From an uncultured virus (IMG/VR IMGVR_UViG_3300046171_000301) (taxonomy: Duplodnaviria > Heunggongvirae > Uroviricota > Caudoviricetes), in IMG/VR virus record IMGVR_UViG_3300046171_000301: a stretch of DNA of 25,180 nucleotides; one strand, given 5' to 3'. The position numbers and the translations under genes are program-made. Every line of letters starts with the position of its first letter. The stretch's first letter is position 1. This document shows positions 3,401 to 21,224 of this stretch, piece by piece. The notes under the pieces were generated by a model. It was not told the DNA's origin, ran no database searches, and saw only the letters and a program-made list of their open reading frames with translations.

Positions 3401-4549
3401 TCAATATACGAATGAGTAACCAACGGTGATGAAGTCCTTATTCAGGATTTCAAAACCAGCAAACAAGGACCAAATCATGATGATAAAACGGCTAAAATCG
3501 TCGTTGTTATTCAGCAAGATCTGAGCATTGTTTCCGCCGATGCCCACACCCACAGCCTGAGGTCCAAAGAAACAAAGTTGAGACATGTCGTAGTCAGCAG
3601 CGCCTGCAGCGGCGTCGGTAATCACGAGGTTTTCGTTCTTCTCAGGAAGGTTGGTTGATTCGAACCAGCGGACGCCTTCAAACAGGAAGCCAGTAGGCAT
3701 CACAGGTTGACCAGCCACAAAACCAGCCTGACCATATGCGGGACCCATACCTTGGTAGAAATTGGCATTAGGTGCAGCATTAGGCTGCATGGGGTTGATC
3801 ATGCCGCTACCGGGGTAACGTGCGATCTCCCTGAAGTCAGCGTTCTGACGCAAGTGCATCATTGCGGTGGGGTCCACGATGCAGCGGTAGTAGCCGTCAG
3901 CAAATGTGGGGACATTGCGCTTACGCATATCCTTAACGACCTCCAGGAGGTCAGTAGTCACGTCGAACTTGGCAGATTCGCCAGCTGCATAGGTGACGCC
4001 ATACACGCCGCCTGAGCCGCCCTTGGCTTTGCCACCGGGCAGGTAGTAGCCACCCTGTTCGGATGAGGCTTGGCCATTGCCATATGCTTTAAGCAGTTCG
4101 TTAGCAAACACACGATCGCGCCACCGGCGGTAGTCATCCAAAAGTGTAAGTGAACCAATGCTTTGGTGGAAGACGTTTAAGTTGCCTGTATCCAGCAGCA
4201 GACGCTGAGCTGTGATCAGGGTCTCACGAGCGACCTTGAAAGTAGAAGGCTGTGCAGAATCACGTGTATCGGCGGGGCCGGTGTATTCACGCAGGGTCAC
4301 GAGGACCTTGTCCTTCACAATGTTGCGGGCAGAAGCTGTACCAAGGGTTTGGTCGGCTGTCCGCTCACGGGACTCCTTAGTGCCAGGCTTGCCCCAGAAG
4401 CGGTACCTATCTAACTGAACAGTTTGACCAGGTTGCTTGCTGAAGTCATGCACGACCACCGGTTCCACGGCCATCTCAATGATGTAAGCCGGGTGGGGAC
4501 GATACAGTTCTGCACCAAGAAGCTTCGGAAAATCATTATCAATCCACAT
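3401..4549 (-). CDS. Major capsid protein (HK97 fold, N4-gp56-like)
   Basis: 382 aa with segments DFSKQPGQTVQLDRY, YYRCIVDP, FEGVRWFESTNLP, FFGPQAVG and DDFSRFIIMIWSLFAGFEIL, which resemble N4-gp56-type capsids. GGAG RBS, GC-rich codons, and followed by a decoration-like gene and a terminator. Confidence 0.85.
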   Translation of the reverse strand: MWIDNDFPKLLGAELYRPHPAYIIEMAVEPVVVHDFSKQPGQTVQLDRYRFWGKPGTKESRERTADQTLGTASARNIVKDKVLVTLREYTGPADTRDSAQPSTFKVARETLITAQRLLLDTGNLNVFHQSIGSLTLLDDYRRWRDRVFANELLKAYGNGQASSEQGGYYLPGGKAKGGSGGVYGVTYAAGESAKFDVTTDLLEVVKDMRKRNVPTFADGYYRCIVDPTAMMHLRQNADFREIARYPGSGMINPMQPNAAPNANFYQGMGPAYGQAGFVAGQPVMPTGFLFEGVRWFESTNLPEKNENLVITDAAAGAADYDMSQLCFFGPQAVGVGIGGNNAQILLNNNDDFSRFIIMIWSLFAGFEILNKDFITVGYSFVY

Positions 4550-4664: not shown

Positions 4665-5024
4665 ATGGATTTTATTGATACTGGTGTTTGGAAACCAATT
4701 AACTCATTACCAGGATATGAGTGTTGCATTGAATATCACATTAATAGTCAAGGTGAAATTAAAAGTACAAAGGGTCAGATAGAAAGAATTCTCAAACCAC
4801 GCCTACATCGTTCTGGATATCAGACAGTAAATTTGACGCAACGAATAGGACGGAAGCAGGCGGTTACAGCTTACATACATGTTTTAGTGGCACTTGCATT
4901 TCTTTCAGCACCTAAGACCCCTCATGGAAAAACTAAAGGCTGTTCATTTGTAAGACACATAGATGGAGATCTTACAAATAGTTCGGTTTCAAATTTAGAG
5001 TGGGCAAAACGTTCAAGTAATTGA
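4665..5024 (+). CDS. NUMOD4 + HNH homing-endonuclease-like protein, possibly degenerate
   Basis: WKPINSLPGY...YHINSQGEIKS (NUMOD4-like) and YIHVLVALAF...VRHIDGDLTNSSVSNLEW (HNH_3, I-HmuI-like). Opposite strand to the head genes. Confidence 0.85.
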   Translation: MDFIDTGVWKPINSLPGYECCIEYHINSQGEIKSTKGQIERILKPRLHRSGYQTVNLTQRIGRKQAVTAYIHVLVALAFLSAPKTPHGKTKGCSFVRHIDGDLTNSSVSNLEWAKRSSN

Positions 5025-6146: not shown

Positions 6147-7106
6147 TTAAATGTATTCAAATACTTTCTCACTTCGTACAACTAATTCTTTCAGGGCTTT
6201 CCTTTCTAACGTCCTTACACGATCTCTACTCATATTAAGAATTTGACCGACAGCAGTCATTGACATTGGTTCTACAACATCTTCACCAATTCCATATCTC
6301 ATCCGAACAACGGATGCTTGCATCTCTGGTAACTCCTTAATCAGCTCTCTCATATCTTCTTTAATACAGCTTGCAGTCAAAAGATCATCAGGTAGTTGGC
6401 TTTCATCTTCAAGAAGGTCGATAAGAGCTGTGTCACGGTTTTCCCCTATTTTTATTTCAAGGGATGTAGGCTGACGAGCCTTACACATAAGATCTTTAAT
6501 TTCATCTTCAGACAGTTCTAGACATTCAGCTAGCTGACTGACTGTAGGCATAAATCCATTGAGCTGAGATAGTTCTCTTTGTGCTTTTTTAAGCCGGTTT
6601 AGGTTCTCAGTTACATGAATTGGTAGTCGTATTGCCCTACTCTTTTCTGCAATGGCACGGGTGATGCCTTGGCGAATCCACCAGTAGGCGTAGGTTGAAA
6701 ACTTGTACCCACGACCTGGGTCAAACTTTTCAACCCCTCTTACAAGCCCAATGGTTCCTTCTTGGATTATATCTAAGAGCTCCATATTTCTCTTAGTATA
6801 TTTTTTTGCAATGCTTACAACGAGGCGTAAATTTGCTGTGACCATTTTGTCTTTTGCTTTTTGGCCAGCGCGAATCTCTCTCGTTAATTCCTTCCTATCG
6901 AAGTCGAAATATAATGCTAGCTCTGTATCATCAATAGTGCGATTATGTTCTTCAATCAACTCTTTACGTTTATCTTCGATTTCCATCAACCGCTGCACTT
7001 TACGGCCTAGCAGAATTTCTTCATCATGCTCTAGTAAAGGAATGCGGCCAATGTCACGAAGATACGCTCGAACACTATCACCTGTGTGCTTAACTGCAGT
7101 TGTCAT
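6147..7106 (-). CDS. rpoD: Phage-encoded RNA polymerase sigma-70 factor, cyanobacterial group-2 (RpoD-like) type
   Basis: Region 1.2 DSVRAYLRDIGRIPLL; region 2 ANLRLVVSIAKKY...DIIQEGTIGLVRGVEKFDPGRGYKFSTYAYWWIRQGITRAI; region 3 IRLPIHVTENLNRLKK; region 4 SRDRVRTLERKAL. Region 1.1 is absent. Confidence 0.95.
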   Translation of the reverse strand: MTTAVKHTGDSVRAYLRDIGRIPLLEHDEEILLGRKVQRLMEIEDKRKELIEEHNRTIDDTELALYFDFDRKELTREIRAGQKAKDKMVTANLRLVVSIAKKYTKRNMELLDIIQEGTIGLVRGVEKFDPGRGYKFSTYAYWWIRQGITRAIAEKSRAIRLPIHVTENLNRLKKAQRELSQLNGFMPTVSQLAECLELSEDEIKDLMCKARQPTSLEIKIGENRDTALIDLLEDESQLPDDLLTASCIKEDMRELIKELPEMQASVVRMRYGIGEDVVEPMSMTAVGQILNMSRDRVRTLERKALKELVVRSEKVFEYI

Positions 7107-12554: not shown

Positions 12555-14093
12555 CTAAGAATCAAAACTATCACTATTGTAATCAACTTGCAAAGAACCT
12601 CTTCTCAGTAATCCACCAATTGTTAATACCATTGAGTCGACAGCATCATCGTGTGAAGCATGACCAAAGTTTAAAAGCTCTTCCTCTAAAACATCCCATT
12701 TTCTCCATTTGTTCCATACAATTTTTCTATGCTCATATAGTCCCAAGATTCCCCTTAGTCTTGCCAGTTTGTCGCCTCTAAAGCCTTTGACTGGAGAAAT
12801 TGCAAGGTTATACAAAGAACGATCTTCAAACATTATCCGTTTGAAATCACCTTCAAATGATGTTTGATATGCTACAGCTTCTGGCCAGATAACACAATGA
12901 GATGCTGTTGGAAAATATTGTCCATCTTCATTTTCAATAAGAATGTGCCAATCAGCAAGCATTTCACATAGAGTATCCATCTTTTCAATATTCCCCATAG
13001 ACCTACATCTTCTTTGATCAATCAAATAAATTTTGCTGTCACGAATTCCAGCAAGTGTAAATACAGTCCAGTCATTCTTTTCGCTTAAGCCTGCGCTAAG
13101 GTCAATCCCAACGCCAATGCAGTCATATTCATCAGGTACTTCACCGTGGATCAATAGATCTGGTGAAATGCCAACATCACTTGACTGCACTGCAGTATTT
13201 AAATACTGATAAGCAAAAGCCACCCGATCTTCTGCTTTACGCTCATTGAGATATTTCATTGACCAAAATTCAGGCCAATATGATCTTGATCTACCTTCCT
13301 CATCCGTTATTACTGCCTTCTGTACGATTTGTCTCCAGTTATTCTTTGGTACAAATAGCGTGGAGTGAATATCGTCAAAATGGAACCGGGTTCCCAAACA
13401 GATGGCTCTTGCCCCTTGAAACATCGTAGGTGCGATAACGTTTGACCACGTTGCTTCCATTTCACGCCGTATATCCGGGTTGTTGATGGCCGCAGCGGAT
13501 TTAATAGGGTCATCGATAAGTACCAGTTGCGATCTTTTCGAAGTGATCGCACCCTTGAGACCACCACACGCAATGGTAAACGCCTCTTCACCTGCTGTAT
13601 CAATACCCGCAAATTCATAGTCGATACTCCAGTACTCGTCAGATCTTTTTATTTTTGACAGACGTACCATTGGGAAGATTTCCCTATATTTTGCACTCGA
13701 TAAAATTCCTTTTATAGTTGCTGACTTGGCTCTACTAATGTCCACCATGTAAGCGATGTAGAGTATTCGCAGCATTTTCTTGGCAGCTGCATGTCTTCCA
13801 ATCATCCAAGCTGCAAACAAACCAAGGACAGTGCTTTTTGCAGAACCACGGGGTGCGAGGATCGATGTGTTTGGTCCCCCTACGCCTAATAGACATTCGC
13901 TGTCCTCTCCTGTACAAAGTTCATTGTGCCACTCCAGCATGTGCTTAGCGGGAGCCTTTCCCATCACTTTGCAAAATGCATGGAAGTTTTCGCGAGCCTC
14001 TATGACTTCCTGCGTAGGCGGCTTGCTTGTGACTTTTGTCGCAGTCATCAAAGCACTGCGCCTATAAGCTAATGATGCACTTGCAATTGCCAT
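12555..14093 (-). CDS. terL: Terminase large subunit
   Basis: Walker A APRGSAKST, Walker B LVLIDDP, coupling motif LGTRFHFDD, and RNase-H-like nuclease motifs VGIDLS...DWTVF and HDDAVDS. Confidence 0.95.
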   Translation of the reverse strand: MAIASASLAYRRSALMTATKVTSKPPTQEVIEARENFHAFCKVMGKAPAKHMLEWHNELCTGEDSECLLGVGGPNTSILAPRGSAKSTVLGLFAAWMIGRHAAAKKMLRILYIAYMVDISRAKSATIKGILSSAKYREIFPMVRLSKIKRSDEYWSIDYEFAGIDTAGEEAFTIACGGLKGAITSKRSQLVLIDDPIKSAAAINNPDIRREMEATWSNVIAPTMFQGARAICLGTRFHFDDIHSTLFVPKNNWRQIVQKAVITDEEGRSRSYWPEFWSMKYLNERKAEDRVAFAYQYLNTAVQSSDVGISPDLLIHGEVPDEYDCIGVGIDLSAGLSEKNDWTVFTLAGIRDSKIYLIDQRRCRSMGNIEKMDTLCEMLADWHILIENEDGQYFPTASHCVIWPEAVAYQTSFEGDFKRIMFEDRSLYNLAISPVKGFRGDKLARLRGILGLYEHRKIVWNKWRKWDVLEEELLNFGHASHDDAVDSMVLTIGGLLRRGSLQVDYNSDSFDS

Positions 14094-14543: not shown

Positions 14544-15072
14544 TAATTAGCTCACTGTAAATCTTTGCCCATACGGCATTGATAGCATTTTCAATGGGTT
14601 CTGCAAATTGTGGATCATCTTTAAATATGCCTGTAAGTTCTCTCATTACACGATCGGCACCTGCCATGATTAATCCTCGCTTATCTGTACTTCTATTTAT
14701 TCTTTCGCTTGTTTCGATATGAGATCGTAACTCTTTTTCCAGAGCAGCCAATCTAGCTGCGCCATTATCCCCCTTGATTTCACCGGAGGTAATTGCCATT
14801 CTAAGTTCTTGTATATCGGAGTGTAGAGCAGATATTTCGCTATTAAGAATACCACGTCTATCTAACTTTCGATACTTCATTTTAACCCAACGACTTAAAT
14901 CGTTAAAGGTTCCCTCGTATCCCAAGATTCCTGCATAGACCCAAATCTCAATAACAGACGGAGTTACTTCGGCAAACTCACGAAAGTCCTCACTATCAGC
15001 AGCAGGTAATGTGTCTAACCATTGATCCATTTGAGTGATATAAACTTTTGAAGAATTTGTTTTAGTTGTCAT
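14536..15072 (-). CDS. Putative terminase small subunit
   Basis: 178 aa with an N-terminal helical HTH-like part (GYEGTFNDLSRW) followed by a coiled coil, two genes upstream of terL. Function is inferred. Confidence 0.45.
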   Translation of the reverse strand: MTTKTNSSKVYITQMDQWLDTLPAADSEDFREFAEVTPSVIEIWVYAGILGYEGTFNDLSRWVKMKYRKLDRRGILNSEISALHSDIQELRMAITSGEIKGDNGAARLAALEKELRSHIETSERINRSTDKRGLIMAGADRVMRELTGIFKDDPQFAEPIENAINAVWAKIYSELING

Positions 15073-16145
15073 TAGAACATACCCGCAAGGCTTCGTGCAT
15101 ATTTACTTTGATTAGCACGTGATTTTGCTTCTAGTCTATTCTGTCTTTCAAGAGTTTTTCTATCGTCATCACCTTTTGCACCAATGCTCCGAACGTCTGC
15201 ATCAGATTGTTCGTCTATGCGGTTAGTGTCGGTTTGGCGTGTTTCATCTCCAGTAGTTCTTATTTTCGACTCATCAACGTTCCCTTGTTCTTTAATGGTT
15301 GATCTGTCTTCAGACCCTTGCGTTTTAATCGTCTTCCTTGATTCTTGCCCAGTCGCTCCTATACGACCAACTCCTTTATCCGTATATTCAGTACCAATAT
15401 CACTTTCGTCTTTAGCTTTCTGAGTAGCTCTTTCTTCAACGCCTGCAGCGCCAATCCTACCGATACCTTGTTTAGTGTACTGAGTTCCTAAATCAGTTGA
15501 TCTATCTTCAGTACCTTGTAATCCGATAGCTTTTTGCTGTTCGCCAACAAGTAATCTATCTTCAGTACCTTTAGTTTCTAATGTACTTCTATCTTCTGTT
15601 CCTTGCCTCTTAACCTTCTTAATATCATTTCTGCCTTGAGCATCTAAATTCAACCGATTCTCAATACCTTCTAATTTAGTCTGCCTTTGAGTGATGTCTC
15701 CCGCTGAAGCCATTTGGTTTAGATTACGATTGGCTTCATCTACTGCAAAGCGAGATTGAAAGTCGTATTCAGAACCCATTTTTTGCATTCCATACACAAA
15801 CTCATCCTTCATCACTTGCGCCATATTTCGCTGCTCTAGATTTGCAGCTTGATTCATTGCGCCTGATGCAATTGTTTGATTAGCAAGCGCAAGTCCTTTT
15901 GCTTGCTCAGCATCAAATGCGGACTGCACAACATTACCTTGAAATGCCATCTTCATGGAGGCCATATCTTCATTATCAGTCGTGTCGTAGTTATAGAAAT
16001 CATTCATGATTCCTTGGAAGTTAAACATTCCTTGACCAACACCACCAGGAGCTAAATTAGGATTTTGCTGATTATATTCTTTTTTAGTCATGCCTGTGGC
16101 TGCTCTTTCAGCCTTACTCATGTCAGCCCAAGCTTTTTTTGCCAT
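15072..16145 (-). CDS. Putative internal/ejection protein with 11-residue repeats
   Basis: 357 aa with repeated G-x-E-[DE]-R-x-T units at ~11-aa spacing. TAGAAT lies 24 nt upstream. Confidence 0.7.
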   Translation of the reverse strand: MAKKAWADMSKAERAATGMTKKEYNQQNPNLAPGGVGQGMFNFQGIMNDFYNYDTTDNEDMASMKMAFQGNVVQSAFDAEQAKGLALANQTIASGAMNQAANLEQRNMAQVMKDEFVYGMQKMGSEYDFQSRFAVDEANRNLNQMASAGDITQRQTKLEGIENRLNLDAQGRNDIKKVKRQGTEDRSTLETKGTEDRLLVGEQQKAIGLQGTEDRSTDLGTQYTKQGIGRIGAAGVEERATQKAKDESDIGTEYTDKGVGRIGATGQESRKTIKTQGSEDRSTIKEQGNVDESKIRTTGDETRQTDTNRIDEQSDADVRSIGAKGDDDRKTLERQNRLEAKSRANQSKYARSLAGMF

Positions 16146-16207: not shown

Positions 16208-17269
16208 ATGTCGGCTGCAAGAGGCGTTAGTGCAAGTACATATGTAAGGGCTGGCAATACTGCTGCAGACGCCGCTATAGGGGCTATAAGGGCTGCTAGA
16301 CGTAACTCTCCCAACATGGGTGACATTGTCATAGAAGGGCAGAAGCAGCGGGCTCAGACCAAGGCTGTTGCACTTAAGGCTGAAGCTGATATCCACAACG
16401 CTGGTATTCGTAAAGAAGCAGCTGTCCGTAAAGCTAGGGTTCAGGCAGATCGAGATAAGTCACTTGCTAAATCAAAAGCTACCGTCCGTAAGGCAGGTAA
16501 GATTGCGGCTGCTGGTACTTTGATTGGCGATAGTATTACTGAAGGTAGAAATACAAGGGAGCGTAGAGATTTGTTGGCAAGAATGGAAGCGAAATCTGAG
16601 AAGAGGCATGCGGAAAGGCAAAAGCAGCATGCTGAACTTATTGAGCAACTTAAATCTAGGAACACCGGTTCCGATGACTCTATTCCCGTTACCGTAACAC
16701 CTGCTTCTATTGGACTCGATGTAAGTAGTCCCCCAAAGCCTAATGAAGAAGTAGCAAGTGCAAGTGGTGTTACTTCTCCCGACTCACCAGTCAGTCAAGG
16801 CATTGGTAGCTCTGAAGGGTGGGAGCGTTTAAGTCGTGTTATTCGATTTGGTGAGGGTACTACCGGTTCACGTGGATATAACACACAATTTACTGGTACA
16901 CAATTTGATGATTTATCTGCTCATCCACGGCAAAAAAAGACTAATGGCAGGTATACCTCTGATGCTGCAGGAGCTTATCAATTTTTATCTACTACATGGG
17001 ATGGGGCTAAAAAGGCTTTGAATCTTCCTGATTTTTCAATTTCCAGTCAAGAGAAAGCCGGTAGATATTTAACAGAGCAGCGTGGTGTCAATCCCGACAT
17101 GGTATTTAAATCTAAAAGTGAATTCAAAGCTGCTATGGATAAACTAGCCCCTGAATGGGCAAGTCTTCCTTATTCAGGTGTTAGTCCAGGTGGTTACGGT
17201 AAGGGGAGCTCTTACTATGGCCAAGGCGGTAAGAGTGTTGACGAGCTTTGGGATCTTTACAATAAATAA
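16208..17269 (+). CDS. Lambda-R-type lysozyme/lytic transglycosylase fused to an N-terminal helical domain, probably virion-associated
   Basis: C-terminal domain from ~aa 205: VIRFGEGT (catalytic Glu ~E216), SDAAGAYQFLSTTW, LPDFS, APEWASLP, YYGQ. The N-terminal domain is paralogous to 18421-19128 and 19128-19493. Confidence 0.88.
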   Translation: MSAARGVSASTYVRAGNTAADAAIGAIRAARRNSPNMGDIVIEGQKQRAQTKAVALKAEADIHNAGIRKEAAVRKARVQADRDKSLAKSKATVRKAGKIAAAGTLIGDSITEGRNTRERRDLLARMEAKSEKRHAERQKQHAELIEQLKSRNTGSDDSIPVTVTPASIGLDVSSPPKPNEEVASASGVTSPDSPVSQGIGSSEGWERLSRVIRFGEGTTGSRGYNTQFTGTQFDDLSAHPRQKKTNGRYTSDAAGAYQFLSTTWDGAKKALNLPDFSISSQEKAGRYLTEQRGVNPDMVFKSKSEFKAAMDKLAPEWASLPYSGVSPGGYGKGSSYYGQGGKSVDELWDLYNK

Positions 17270-17291
17270 TTTTAATTTAGGCTATGCCCGA

Positions 17292-17939
17292 TTAAATCAG
17301 AAATGCTCTGCCTAGTCCAAACAAAGCTTGGAATAATTCGGCTTTACTCTTTCGGCCCCTTTGATCTAATTCCATCATTCTTAACTCTCGTTCCATAGCC
17401 CTATCTTCTCTTCGATCACTTCGGTCATCAGCCCTTATTTGCTCCGCTCTAATTAAAGCATCGGTATACCTTTGCTCACCTTTATCTGTTATAGCCTGTT
17501 CGTTTGCATCTCGCTGTGCTGCTGCTAGTTTACGGATTTGTTGTGTTGTTAGGTCCTCAGTTTGTGATAAATCTGAACCCTTCACTCCAACGTAATCAGT
17601 TACGGCTAGTCCTCTTGAATTTAGTTGTCCAAGTCGTTTGTTATAGTCAGTTTCCAATTCTCCTTCTTGAATCTTAAGATCCTCTGGCTTTATGCCAGGC
17701 AGGTTTTCTTCAATTGCGCCTCTGAGACCTGGGTTTGTTTTGTTAATTTTTTTCTCTAATAATTTTTGAGCTTTTTCCCTTACATCTTCTTCAGAATATC
17801 CTCCTAAAGCTCCCCTTAGGCGATCAAAAAGGTCGTATTTACCATCAAAGCTTGTTCTGTCATCTGACAGATTGCCCATTTCTCCTTTAGCCGCATCTTC
17901 AACCGATCCTACACCCGGTAAAAATTGAAAATATGACAT
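17292..17939 (-). CDS. Hypothetical helical/coiled-coil virion protein
   Basis: 215 aa, coupled to the upstream gene by TGATG. R/D/E-rich C-terminal coiled coil. Confidence 0.7.
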   Translation of the reverse strand: MSYFQFLPGVGSVEDAAKGEMGNLSDDRTSFDGKYDLFDRLRGALGGYSEEDVREKAQKLLEKKINKTNPGLRGAIEENLPGIKPEDLKIQEGELETDYNKRLGQLNSRGLAVTDYVGVKGSDLSQTEDLTTQQIRKLAAAQRDANEQAITDKGEQRYTDALIRAEQIRADDRSDRREDRAMERELRMMELDQRGRKSKAELFQALFGLGRAFLI

Positions 17940-18421
17940 CAGTATCTACCCCCCTGTAACATTGCTAAAGCTTCTTCCATTCTACGTTGTTCTGGAGTTT
18001 TCTTATCTCCAAACAAATACTGCAGACCGTCGCTGGCTTGTTTACCTGTACCAGCTCCAACAAGCATTCCCATAGGACCACCCGTCACTAATCCAACGCC
18101 GCCGCCTACAAGCATTCCTGCACCATCCATAATTCGGTTGCCGAGGCTTTCATCGCCCGCAACTACATCAGCAGCATCTAGTGCTACCAGTCCGGCTGAT
18201 AGGCCAGGGACGAAACGCAGTACTGCCTGTGCCGGCTTTGACGCAGCAAACCTAAGACCTTTCTTGCCGAAGATACTCCCAAGCTCTTTTGTAATTTGAT
18301 GTTGTGCTTTTGAGTTTTTACCTAAGAGAAAGTTTCCAACATCTCCAGCTGTAGTTTGCCGTATCTGCGGAATTAAAACGTCAGAACCGTACTCAGCTCC
18401 TCTAGACAAAAAGTCGTACAT
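17939..18421 (-). CDS. Glycine-zipper hydrophobic protein, putative ejection or membrane-penetrating protein
   Basis: 160 aa, coupled by TAATG. Contains GAGMLVGGGVGLVTGGPMGMLVGAGTG. Confidence 0.7.
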   Translation of the reverse strand: MYDFLSRGAEYGSDVLIPQIRQTTAGDVGNFLLGKNSKAQHQITKELGSIFGKKGLRFAASKPAQAVLRFVPGLSAGLVALDAADVVAGDESLGNRIMDGAGMLVGGGVGLVTGGPMGMLVGAGTGKQASDGLQYLFGDKKTPEQRRMEEALAMLQGGRY

Positions 18422-19128
18422 TAATTTACTCCTGCTAAAGCTTCTTTGGCTTCCATGCGCTGAATGCGAGTTTCTAGCTGTTGAATGCTGCGGACAAGTA
18501 GTCCGATTAACTCGTTGGTGTCAATACATAGCTTTCCAAGACTTTCATCAAAGTATGTTGCATCAGGCATATGCTCTTGATATTCCTGTGCAATAAATCC
18601 GTAATGAAGCCTGTGTGGATCTAATGTATATTCCTCATTGTAGTAAAAGCTTACAGGACGTAATTCACGCAGTAACGACAATGCATCATCGAGCTCTTCA
18701 ATAGTATTTTTAATAGTTTCATCGCTGGGCATCAACGCTCCCATGGCTAAAGCACCACCGACGCTTCCAAGAGCACTGAAAGCAGACCCAATCATAGATC
18801 CCTTCGCCTCTGCTGAAGCAGCTGCTTTTGCCGCATCGGCCTCTATTTTTGCAGCCTTAATCTGACCTTCCGCTGCTAAACCCTGTGAGTGAATAGAAGA
18901 CTCAGCTTGCATACCAGCACGGTTTACAAGACCACGTGCTGCAAGGCTGTTTCGTGTGATTTCACCATACTCAGGGGATTTTTTTCGAAGATCGTCATAG
19001 ATTGCACTTAGCTGACCTTGCTGTGCGGCACCAGCGTGTCCCTTACCGCCTAGGCCACTAAACATCTCTCCGGTACCACCAAAGCCACCGAAGTTTTTGA
19101 GATTATCGCCAGCAAGTCTTAAAGTCAT
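18421..19128 (-). CDS. Virion protein with a C-terminal intramolecular chaperone / peptidase S74 autocleavage domain
   Basis: SDETIKNTIEEL..ALSLLRELRPVSFYY...HYGFIAQEYQEHMP...LIGLLVRSIQQLETRI matches the S74 pattern, with the Ser135-Lys140 dyad intact. Confidence 0.88.
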   Translation of the reverse strand: MTLRLAGDNLKNFGGFGGTGEMFSGLGGKGHAGAAQQGQLSAIYDDLRKKSPEYGEITRNSLAARGLVNRAGMQAESSIHSQGLAAEGQIKAAKIEADAAKAAASAEAKGSMIGSAFSALGSVGGALAMGALMPSDETIKNTIEELDDALSLLRELRPVSFYYNEEYTLDPHRLHYGFIAQEYQEHMPDATYFDESLGKLCIDTNELIGLLVRSIQQLETRIQRMEAKEALAGVN

Positions 19129-19493
19129 TATTTTTCGTTTGGATTAGTAGGAGGAGTAGGACCAGGTCTATATTTAAGCCCTCCCATGACACCTGAAGCT
19201 ACGTTGCCAATGCCGTCAGCTATTCCACCAAATATTGCTGCATTACCCGCTTGTTGTCCCGCATATCTGCGTGCTTCACCTAAGTGTTTTGCAGATTCAA
19301 TGGCTGCCCCCTTACCAATTCCAGCGCTATGGATTTTTGCAATTTCTGTCATGGAGGTTGCATCTGTAGCACCTCTTTCAGCTATACCTCTAGTCGCTGT
19401 CTTGCCATAATCCTCTTTAGGATTCAAGAAATCTGTCACCGTCGGCAGCTGCAGACCCTCAAACGCTTTACCAGCAAACCTTCCGACAGACAT
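19128..19493 (-). CDS. Small Gly/Ala-rich virion protein consisting of the shared carrier domain alone
   Basis: 121 aa with TAGAAT (19516-19521) 22 nt upstream. Aligns without gaps to the N-termini of the S74 and lysozyme proteins. Confidence 0.75.
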   Translation of the reverse strand: MSVGRFAGKAFEGLQLPTVTDFLNPKEDYGKTATRGIAERGATDATSMTEIAKIHSAGIGKGAAIESAKHLGEARRYAGQQAGNAAIFGGIADGIGNVASGVMGGLKYRPGPTPPTNPNEK

Positions 19494-19524: not shown

Positions 19525-20706
19525 TTATTGCAAATTACTATTATCAGAATTCATTAAATTATCTGCGTTATTACGCCTACGCCGTTCTTGCTCCAAAATA
19601 TTGCCTGCGATTTGGCCAGCAACTAAGCCAGTCATTCCACCGACAAAGCCACCACGTATAGGTCTTGATGTTCGTACACCAGCAGCTCCGCCTGCTAATG
19701 CACTTAGATACGGGACTACACCTGTAGTAACAGGGAGGCTTCTACCTAAGAACTGCATTTCAGGTCCATGAATGCCCTCGTCAGTGAACTTCAGTGCGCC
19801 AGCACCGATCGTCACATCTCCGTCTAGCGGATTCCAGTCTTCTTTTTTGTCATACTTAAAGCCTTTATATCGTCCATACTCTTCTGGAGATACATCAGGT
19901 CGTACCTTTACGAACTCGTTATACGGAAGAAGATTGCCCGTCCTGCCCATGATGTACTTAAGGCCCACTTCACCAACTACATTTGAAGTCTTGGTTGGAT
20001 CTTCATCACTAGGTAATGCTGCATAATATCCTTCAGCTCCACCAAATGGTGTCAATAACCCTAACCCTGAGTTGATGGCAACCCCTGTAGGTATAGCTAA
20101 TGATGCAACATGTCCAGGCTCAAAATTACGCTTCATTACAACAGCATCATCACCTTCACCATCAATTGAATAACCGCGTTTTAGGCGCTCCTTGCCGTTC
20201 ATCTTTTTAGTGATGCCTAATGCTTTCTGCGCTTGCTTATCCTTAGCCCTTAGTGGTTTATTGTTGTAAGTATTAGTGACAACTGATTTGCCATAAAGAT
20301 TAGGGTTTGCTTTGGCAAGCACAGCTTCATTGATTACATTGCCTGCGGCCTGTAAAGCATTTAATAGCCAGTACACGCTACGAGTAGTGTCTTGTGTTAA
20401 ATCAGATGCAACTGTTCCTACCCTTTGACCAAAGCGCTTTGCTCCTGTATCCATCATGCCCATGTCTAGCTCATTACGAGCTTGAACATAATTAGGGTCT
20501 GCCATACCCAAGGCTTCTCTTGTTCTATAGATCGTTGGATTGGTAGCCAACATAGAAGTCATGCGTGGCGCTTCTTTTTGCTTACCTTGAAGCTCACGAG
20601 CACGATAGAAACCCATTTGCTCATCTTCTCGGCCTTTGCCGTAGTCATTGGCAAAGCCTTCGCCAAACTCACTTAAGATATTTTTTATTCGCTGCAGCCT
20701 ACTCAT
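19525..20706 (-). CDS. Putative internal virion/ejection protein (393 aa)
   Basis: Start revised from 20847 to the ATG at 20706 (MSRLQRIKNILSEFG), which is TAATG-coupled to the upstream stop. Gly-rich hydrophobic C-terminal segments. Confidence 0.75.
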   Translation of the reverse strand: MSRLQRIKNILSEFGEGFANDYGKGREDEQMGFYRARELQGKQKEAPRMTSMLATNPTIYRTREALGMADPNYVQARNELDMGMMDTGAKRFGQRVGTVASDLTQDTTRSVYWLLNALQAAGNVINEAVLAKANPNLYGKSVVTNTYNNKPLRAKDKQAQKALGITKKMNGKERLKRGYSIDGEGDDAVVMKRNFEPGHVASLAIPTGVAINSGLGLLTPFGGAEGYYAALPSDEDPTKTSNVVGEVGLKYIMGRTGNLLPYNEFVKVRPDVSPEEYGRYKGFKYDKKEDWNPLDGDVTIGAGALKFTDEGIHGPEMQFLGRSLPVTTGVVPYLSALAGGAAGVRTSRPIRGGFVGGMTGLVAGQIAGNILEQERRRRNNADNLMNSDNSNLQ

Positions 20707-21224
20707 TAGCCAATACCACCAGTGCCTAATCCGCCAGGGTTTAAATAGTCGGTAGACCTTGGATAGAGCAACCCATGTTGTGCAAGTATCTGTTGCTCCA
20801 GTTCTTGTGCAAACCTCTCTTGATCCTGACGACCCATTTTCTCCCAAGGGGTTTCCCCTGATCCTCCCATTAATTTATCTTTGGCTCTAAGCACTTGCTC
20901 TGAAACAGGGATTGAGCCGTATCCGCCTCCCACACTGGCAATCATATCCACACCACTTGCAATTCCGGGCTTCCCTAGAAATGGGCGGGATGCCACTAAG
21001 CCCGTGCCTGCAGACATGCCAAAGTCAGTTAATCCTGTCAGTAATTTATCTCCAAGATCTCCAGGTGTTTGAGACGCATTTACAACAGCCATGGTGCCGT
21101 CCATTCCCAGCCTTAACCCTAATTCAGGAATAGAAGCAGCTACACCCTTCTTTATTGCACCGGGATTTCTTCCTAATAAATATTTGAGAGCTTGAAGACC
21201 TTTTGTACCTGCCATTCGAATCAT
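20706..21224 (-). CDS. Gly-rich hypothetical virion protein with N-terminal RMAG
   Basis: 172 aa, ATGA overlap with the upstream gene. Confidence 0.75.
   Translation of the reverse strand: MIRMAGTKGLQALKYLLGRNPGAIKKGVAASIPELGLRLGMDGTMAVVNASQTPGDLGDKLLTGLTDFGMSAGTGLVASRPFLGKPGIASGVDMIASVGGGYGSIPVSEQVLRAKDKLMGGSGETPWEKMGRQDQERFAQELEQQILAQHGLLYPRSTDYLNPGGLGTGGIG

Follow-up and report, generated by a model that had tools for sequence, protein, structure and literature searches.

Short-tailed phages need ejected proteins to span the envelope of the host cell. In phage T7, gp14, gp15 and gp16 leave the capsid and take on this role, and in other virions a wall hydrolase is borne by a structural carrier, as in T4 gp5, phi29 gp13, the tail lysins and the muralytic tape measure proteins. 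Peptidase_S74 (S74) chaperones act as homotrimers, which trimerise the part of the protein upstream of them and then cleave themselves off; among phages they are, to our knowledge, known only from fibre and spike proteins, such as the K1F endosialidase and the T5 L-shaped fibre. The pilot protein H of phiX174 has a long helix in which a hendecad part is followed by a heptad part. The stretch analysed here (the window) comprises 25,180 nucleotides of an uncultured virus of the Caudoviricetes (IMG/VR record IMGVR_UViG_3300046171_000301), in which three genes, designated A, B and C, encode proteins with a common N-terminal domain of about 100 amino acids (aa), referred to here as the carrier domain. 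We give about even chances to the reading that all three proteins are carried in the virion and serve in penetration of the host envelope, on a framework of a hendecad helix and a glycine-zipper segment. Penetration proteins with a wall hydrolase are known; the undescribed shared carrier, its plug-in cargos and the presence of S74 on a small helical protein are new.

Gene A (16208-17269, plus strand) encodes 353 aa, identified from the open reading frame (ORF) list and from PHROG and PDB matches. The carrier domain occupies residues 15-108 (16250..16531; iterated hidden Markov model (HMM) E 1.6e-21, with hhalign matches to the B and C groups) and is followed by a linker (residues 109-205, 16532..16822), in which a charged helical part precedes a Ser/Thr/Pro-rich part, as judged from composition and from the alignment of A-type proteins. 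A muralytic domain resembling lambda R completes the protein (residues 206-353, 16823..17266). Gene B (18421-19128, minus strand, 235 aa) encodes a Gly-rich leader, the carrier domain (residues 32-134, 18727..19035; HMM match over residues 32-125, E 1.5e-23), which ends in a hydrophobic Gly-rich stretch at residues 110-135, and a Peptidase_S74 intramolecular chaperone (residues 135-235, 18424..18726). Gene C (19128-19493, minus strand, 121 aa) encodes the carrier only (residues 7-100, nucleotides 19194-19475; HMM E 3.6e-17), with no Pfam or PHROG family and no domain beyond the carrier. The trio is part of the late block that directly precedes the large terminase gene (12555-14093; phrog_38, E 3e-67).

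Sequence comparison confirms that A, B and C are true paralogues. Pairwise BLASTP aligns A with B over 43 residues (12 identical, ungapped, E 7e-4), A with C over 42 residues (15 identical, ungapped, E 1e-4) and B with C over 102 residues (30 identical, three gaps, E 5e-7). Related loci were gathered through their terminase genes (83-94% identical), with the best 80 of 232 matched stretches retained, and an HMM seeded with the three window segments was iterated over all ORFs of these 80 loci and the window. The model expanded from 46 to 78 ORFs, distributed over 41 of the 80 loci and the window, and these fall into three positional classes. The C type is the first small gene on the terminase strand, the B type is the next gene on that strand and the A type is a gene of 305-449 aa on the strand opposite to the terminase. 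All three occur together in 15 loci and in the window. Orthologue sets aligned separately (15 sequences for C, 17 for B and 27 for A) are joined by hhalign with E 3.6e-13 for C/B (probability 97.9), 1.1e-7 for C/A (94.2) and 3.1e-13 for B/A (97.9).

The region is Ala-rich, and it could be argued that the similarity is a by-product of Ala/Gly-rich helical composition in three unrelated genes. Composition and periodicity do give some signal, since six comparisons with reversed profiles, in which both are retained, reach E values of 0.0011 to 0.13; with 20 column shuffles of the B alignment the values are 0.5 to 0.98. The true comparisons lie 4 to 10 orders of magnitude above these much weaker controls, and the similarity therefore extends far beyond Ala/Gly composition. 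In addition, the three proteins align collinearly, a non-helical P-[DN]-[YF]-G motif falls within the aligned region, and the module is always N-terminal in position. This explanation was accordingly tested and rejected, with hardly any probability left to it. A first-pass annotation of the stretch had set three 51-residue strings from the three proteins in an ungapped register, had taken the proteins as paralogues with a common N-terminal module and had named a profile-profile comparison as the check. The translations agree with the register, BLASTP, hhalign and the controls agree with the paralogy, and the comparison is significant beyond composition (E 1e-7 to 3e-13). In a tree of the domains the A type forms one clade (support 99/94), apart from B and C, which are closer to each other than to the A type. 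The separate A-type clade indicates that the triplication is old and that the copies have been kept apart, which fits three retained, non-redundant roles.

Seven positions described at first as invariant, namely G8, R18, I32, H33, G36, A46 and G67, are so within this genome but not across the 53 domain sequences over which conservation was counted, in which no column is invariant. Gly is present at position 8 in 19 domains, Arg at 18 in 26, Gly at 36 in 27 and Ala at 46 in 19. The G8/R18/IH/G36 pattern, on which the relationship had initially been staked, is thus partly lost among the homologues, and homology no longer rests on those residues. His33 is His in four of the 53 domains, three of which are the window's own copies, so that a conserved metal site on the oligomer axis, proposed for this residue in the first-pass annotation, is ruled out.

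What the 53 domains do have in common is an order of segments. The carrier opens with an Ala/Gly-rich start, followed by a P-[DN]-[YF]-G-x-[LI] motif (P in 28 and Y or F in 31 of the 53; L/I/F and similar residues in 92%), a long helix and a closing [MK]-[AG]-G-x-[LIV]-[AG]-[AG]-x-G-x-[LI] stretch, in agreement with the original description of the module as a long helix and then a Gly-rich hydrophobic stretch. Over six and a half hendecads, large hydrophobic residues return at two positions of the 11-residue repeat, a and f. The periodicity is strongest at 5.45; of 5000 column permutations, 23 reached the observed power at any period and none did so at 5.5. The A group and the combined B and C groups show the same pattern. 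Over the last 15-20 residues of the carrier the spacing changes to 3-4. On a helix of 11 residues in three turns, positions a and f are about 131 degrees apart, which indicates two seams and not one. The carrier thus appears to consist of the P-[DN]-[YF]-G motif, a hendecad helix of about 55 residues and a glycine-zipper-like segment with heptad-like spacing.

The phiX174 H protein resembles the carrier in having Gly-rich hydrophobic stretches together with a long helix, and in the order of hendecad and then heptad parts that the carrier appears to have. It differs in coming from a single-stranded DNA microvirus, in having no cargos and in bearing its hydrophobic stretch at the other end. In a search of the carrier profile against PDB at E<=10, the only matches are two entries for phiX174 H, 4jpn (E 0.13) and 4jpp (E 1.5), and PF04687, the microvirus H family, matches one of 53 carrier segments (E 0.026). 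Homology with H was examined by hhalign and rejected (probability 3.7% with H alone; 8%, E 0.0043, with a four-sequence H profile). The match is within the range of the reversed controls and is therefore not evidence of homology; the likeness is at most an analogy.

A phmmer search with A finds phage lambda lysozyme, a lytic transglycosylase of family GH104 (1am7 and 3d3d; residues 215-326 of A against chain residues 24-133, E 8.5e-14), and the best PHROG is phrog_90, labelled 'endolysin' (E 1.2e-30). Lambda R is a free endolysin of 158 aa, whereas in A the domain is the C-terminal third of 353 aa. Residues 216-218 form an E-G-T triplet, which may correspond to Glu19, near the N-terminus of the lambda R domain, which we take to be its catalytic Glu; as the alignment to 1am7 begins only at chain residue 24, this equivalence is made by eye only. 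Other A-type proteins carry other enzymes. Among 27 orthologues, Pfam recognises Phage_lysozyme2 in five, SLT_3 in four, SLT in four, Hydrolase_2 in two and Glucosaminidase in one, the four SLT and four SLT_3 proteins probably being the same. Seven of 11 further A-type orthologues tested with PHROGs match phrog_90, and one of the phrog_90 matches (L023) has an extra C-terminal part that matches another endolysin family and metallo-endopeptidase families.

Pairs of A-type genes show that the hydrolases are exchanged freely between near-identical carriers. Between L016 and L015 the N-terminal 110 aa are 100% identical and the C-terminal 140 aa 19% identical; the corresponding values are 98% and 21% for two tandem genes of L081, and 84.5% and 20% for L049 and L071. 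The tandem genes (L081:4365-5378 and L081:5508-6578, minus strand of the locus) end in a glucosaminidase in one case and, in the other, in a part with a His-rich motif and no family assigned, and the pair looks like a cargo swap caught in progress. This modular exchange of catalytic domains, the joining of a structural carrier to a wall hydrolase and the presence of PF18013, 'phage tail lysozyme', among the cargos are all features of virion-associated hydrolases. The difference is that the carrier described here belongs to no Pfam family, is shared with two hydrolase-free paralogues in neighbouring genes and is only predicted to be virion-associated.

At the C-terminus of B, residues 135-190 of 235 match the Pfam S74 family (PF13884) with 55.5 bits (cut-off 22; E 6.8e-15), and the domain also matches a solved tail fibre, PDB 8jov (E 1.1e-6). 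From the alignment of B orthologues, the self-cleavage motif is predicted to be S135-D-E-T-I-K140 (18709..18726, minus strand), with cleavage at S135. The nucleophile position reads S-D in 11 of the 12 S74-bearing B orthologues and C-D in one (L081:2493-3203:+), and a Lys, K140 in the window, follows five residues later in all 12. S135 and K140 are presumably the catalytic Ser/Lys pair familiar from endosialidase work. In the remaining five of the 17 B orthologues S74 is missing, and the protein stops soon after the hydrophobic stretch. Among the 150 best hits of a wider profile search (described below) are 12 S74-bearing proteins, and in each of them at most three residues separate the end of the carrier match from the start of the S74 match; in one the two matches overlap by two residues.

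As S74 directly abuts the carrier, it would help the end of the carrier to fold and then be removed, and would not be a cargo, and mature B (134 aa) would be a close counterpart of C (121 aa). The first-pass annotation had assigned a muramidase, a self-cleaving S74 chaperone and nothing to the three paralogues; the lambda-lysozyme-like domain of A, the S74 of B and the bare C bear this out, but S74 as a C-terminal cargo is not supported, given its position next to the carrier and its absence from five of 17 B orthologues. In addition, given that S74 chaperones are homotrimeric, B would first form a homotrimer and not a mixed trimer with A and C, which argues against a strict 1:1:1 A/B/C trimer. 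B shares with S74 fibres and spikes the C-terminal S74 and its Ser...Lys pair, but the remainder of the protein is 134 aa long, helical and ends in a glycine zipper, in contrast to the long beta-helical, receptor-binding fibres. Moreover, in a tblastn search of B against phage records, the 25 records listed of 148 match only from residue 112 of B onward, and 24 of these have tail-fibre annotations in the matched region, where one is unannotated; upstream of residue 112, B is unmatched among the records listed. The use of S74 by a helical protein of 134 residues would widen the range of what this chaperone is thought to fold.

The carrier domain is not confined to the related loci. A profile search over 1.84 billion representative proteins finds it in 772 metagenomic protein clusters at E<=1e-3 and in 277 at E<=1e-10, and in all of the best 150 hits, which were analysed further, it begins at or before residue 40. 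Pfam families in these 150 are Phage_lysozyme2 (21), SLT_3 (24), Peptidase_S74 (12), Glucosaminidase (7) and Hydrolase_2 (4); the 82 with no family include short forms, fragments and types that Pfam misses, such as A of the window. No cargo other than a peptidoglycan hydrolase or S74 was recognised among the 150. Overall, the hydrolase types found behind the carrier amount to five Pfam families and the lambda-lysozyme-like type. The carrier itself belongs to no Pfam family; in hmmscan at E<=10 each family hit at most two of the 53 domain segments. None of 43 longer homologues has an informative database name, and the three that are named are called 'hypothetical protein'. The titles and opening lines of abstracts retrieved in a literature search contain no description of the module.

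A megablast search with 16 kb gave no match among cultured phages. The sole cultured relative is Synechococcus phage S-EIV1, with 44% identity over a 760-aa virion protein encoded in the window (phrog_20475, E 2e-176). The phage matches the uncultured marine cyanophage lineage outlined in bioRxiv 10.1101/325100, in which S-EIV1 is the nearest relative and only TerL, the portal, the major capsid protein and putative tail proteins are given as identifiable. A complete relative, G001 (L087-L091; 82,299 bp, CheckV 100%), contains exactly three carrier copies. It also encodes psbA, a transaldolase (talC), ferredoxin, a cyanophage outer-membrane-protein-like gene, ThyX, ribonucleotide reductase and an integrase, a family-A DNA polymerase divided over two genes, one for the exonuclease and one for the polymerase, a SET-domain protein, an IF-1-like protein and a weak ADP-ribosyltransferase-like match (E 2.8e-4).

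A, B and C are probably parts of an envelope-breaching machinery. In the mechanism that we propose, the carrier would assemble the proteins into an oligomer and would later engage the host membrane. The hydrolase of A, on its long flexible linker, would open the wall locally. In B, S74 would trimerise the segment just upstream, cut itself off at Ser135 and leave a protein of 134 aa, which would equal C, the bare module, in size and shape. The three proteins may co-assemble. In favour of this reading are the homology of the module, the conservation of the trio in 15 loci, the window and G001, the restriction of recognised cargos to wall hydrolases and S74, the exchange of the hydrolases, the hendecad pattern of the helix and the listing of S-EIV1, the nearest isolate, among the Podoviridae. 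Of the ejection needle or channel put forward in the first-pass annotation, the envelope-penetration role is retained as the best reading and the metal site is not.

The catalytic domains of the A-type proteins are of endolysin types, and it is unlikely, but worth weighing, that the three genes form a lysis cassette, in which the module would anchor A, as the phage's endolysin or an additional one, to the membrane, and B and C would be holin-, antiholin- or spanin-like partners with the same module. The phrog_90 label, the position of A on its own strand and the small size of B and C, with one hydrophobic segment each, are in keeping with this, as is the cargo exchange, endolysin domains being known to be swapped between phages. 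By Pfam, the A type is also the sole hydrolase in G001. With PHROGs, however, a second hydrolase is found in G001, a 249-aa endolysin resembling glycoside hydrolase family 19 (GH19) (phrog_181, E 5e-23), at the far end of the tail-fibre genes and adjoining a 90-aa ORF with one hydrophobic segment, so that the lysis role looks to be taken by another gene. A virion-associated hydrolase with two hydrolase-free partners fits better than a lysis cassette with this separate endolysin, with the S74 domain of B, a module otherwise of fibres and spikes, and with the 'phage tail lysozyme' cargos in 21 of the 150 best hits. The same holds for the long linker of A and its lack of a signal-like N-terminus, for the position of the block just before the terminase and for the extreme divergence of the block beside a conserved terminase (83-94% identical). 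A has no hydrophobic N-terminus of the signal-arrest-release (SAR) type either, and the approximately 200 residues of helix and Ser/Thr/Pro linker ahead of its enzyme are atypical of endolysins of Gram-negative hosts. B and C, for their part, reach only 1.43 and 1.26 in a 19-residue hydropathy scan.

Several observations weigh against envelope penetration. In every locus A forms a transcription unit of its own on the opposite strand, an arrangement that is common among lysis genes but seldom found for structural ones; a scan for promoters and terminators around A found sites no more frequently than in shuffled sequence. The best PHROG of A carries the label 'endolysin', and with Pfam alone no wall hydrolase but the A type is recognised in the 142 ORFs of G001, the second being seen only with PHROGs. 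No carrier copy is detectable in the whole S-EIV1 record or in the relatives G002 and G003 (85% and 89% complete). The 19-residue Kyte-Doolittle maximum is only 0.65 in A, and with the values given above for B and C the hydrophobic stretches are moderately hydrophobic at most, so that insertion into a membrane is not assured. The AlphaFold2 monomer of B contains only a long helix at residues 54-115 (predicted local distance difference test score (pLDDT) about 65-75), and its mean pLDDT of 57 makes the model too poor for a fold search. Finally, in locus L010 an opposite-strand hydrolase of 578 aa (L010:4542-6278:-) is borne on another N-terminus rich in glycine zippers, with no detectable carrier. 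In the same locus the small genes before the hydrolase end in hydrophobic Gly-rich tails, and the theme of a hydrolase on a glycine-zipper anchor thus persists there without the carrier domain.

If A, B and C are penetration proteins, they would work most like the T7 gp14/gp15/gp16 set or a virion-associated hydrolase, while belonging by sequence to neither family. The likeness to the T7 set is that of virion proteins encoded close upstream of the terminase, one of them with a wall-cleaving domain. The T7 proteins differ in being much larger and not mutual paralogues, and the transglycosylase of gp16 is N-terminal. A lead towards gp14 came from a weak language-model match only (score 0.83, for a family assigned to 28% of one cluster). 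Homology with gp14 was rejected, the hhalign probability being 0.2% and PF24072 being absent among the 25 of 28 families listed by hmmscan with the 53 segments at E<=10.

A more specific arrangement, to which we assign a low probability, is an alpha-helical barrel built from the carrier as a helix with two seams. With about 131 degrees between them, seams a and f are placed as would be expected in a ring of six to nine helices, and a side-by-side packing of trimers would possibly suit such a helix. Trimers of A, B and C would then be joined through these seams into a tube closed by the glycine-zipper segment, a trans-envelope DNA conduit like that of phiX174 H, and the substrate of S74 would be a membrane-active bundle of helices in place of a beta-helical fibre. 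Under the penetration reading as a whole, the domain family, with at least 772 protein clusters, offers a starting point for learning how the cyanobacterial envelope is breached by these phages. Independently of that reading, a carrier that accepts at least six kinds of wall hydrolase is a natural plug-in system.

Further genes surround the trio. C, B, D (17939-18421, minus strand, 160 aa, with two glycine-zipper stretches by hydropathy) and E (17292-17939, minus strand, 215 aa) are chained by one-base stop/start overlaps (TAATG, TAATG and TGATG), and A, between E and J, is the sole plus-strand gene of the block. Genes F (19525-20706, minus strand, 393 aa after correction of the start) and G (20706-21224, minus strand) bear glycine zippers and are conserved in relatives, and D, E, F and G may be part of the same machine as A, B and C. 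The TTG start listed for F at 20847 is probably wrong, since orthologues align only from residue 47-61, and the ATG at 20706 gives a protein of 393 aa that abuts G. The predicted model of F is good (pLDDT 79.9, predicted template modelling score 0.73), with three glycine-zipper-like stretches by hydropathy. Foldseek with this model finds no PDB match at E<=0.001 and one unnamed viral model at E 1.7e-9, the best VIA-align match is to a designed filament (Z 5.2), and PDB sequence searches with F and with gene I found nothing. F is therefore uninformative on the role of the block.

The abundance of glycine-zipper-type segments in this block, together with the lack of any structural family recognised in its genes by Pfam or PHROGs and of a recognisable PDB fold for F, would also be expected of non-virion membrane proteins that are made late in the infected cell, for example in superinfection exclusion or envelope remodelling, with the module as a membrane tether. 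This is improbable in view of the position directly upstream of the terminase, in a late block that also contains the head genes (among them that of a major head protein, 3401-4549, phrog_1357), the S74 chaperone on B and the hydrolase cargos on long linkers. It is also at odds with the very high divergence beside a terminase that is 83-94% identical, as expected for proteins in contact with the host.

The 11-residue periodicity of the carrier recurs in gene J (15072-16145, minus strand, 357 aa), a degenerate 11-residue repeat protein of the G-T-E-D-R-S-T type, in which identity at lag 11 is 0.145, as compared with 0.067 +/- 0.014 in shuffles; no DNA-level tandem repeats of note were found in the window, including under the repeats of J. 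This periodicity suggests a further, slightly more improbable explanation, that A, B and C are tape-measure-like or internal scaffold pieces with a main role in assembly (determination of length or core) and not in penetration, the more so as hydrophobic Gly-rich segments and muralytic domains are also found in tape measure proteins. Nevertheless, A, B and C are small for such a role (121-353 aa), and the orthologues of J, in loci with terminases 83-94% identical, range from 231 to 1233 aa, which between such close relatives is inconsistent with a ruler. Searches with Pfam and PHROGs revealed neither a tail tube nor a sheath family, although the genes of this lineage are mostly unrecognisable, and the nearest isolate, S-EIV1, is placed among the Podoviridae in PMC9382816.

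Two further genes lie among the head genes of the window. A sigma-70 family factor is encoded inside the head gene block (6147-7106, minus strand; phrog_351, E 1.4e-79), and its orthologue in G001 contains the Sigma70 regions r1_2, r2, r3 and r4 by Pfam. An HNH endonuclease gene (4665-5024, plus strand) lies on the opposite strand between head genes.

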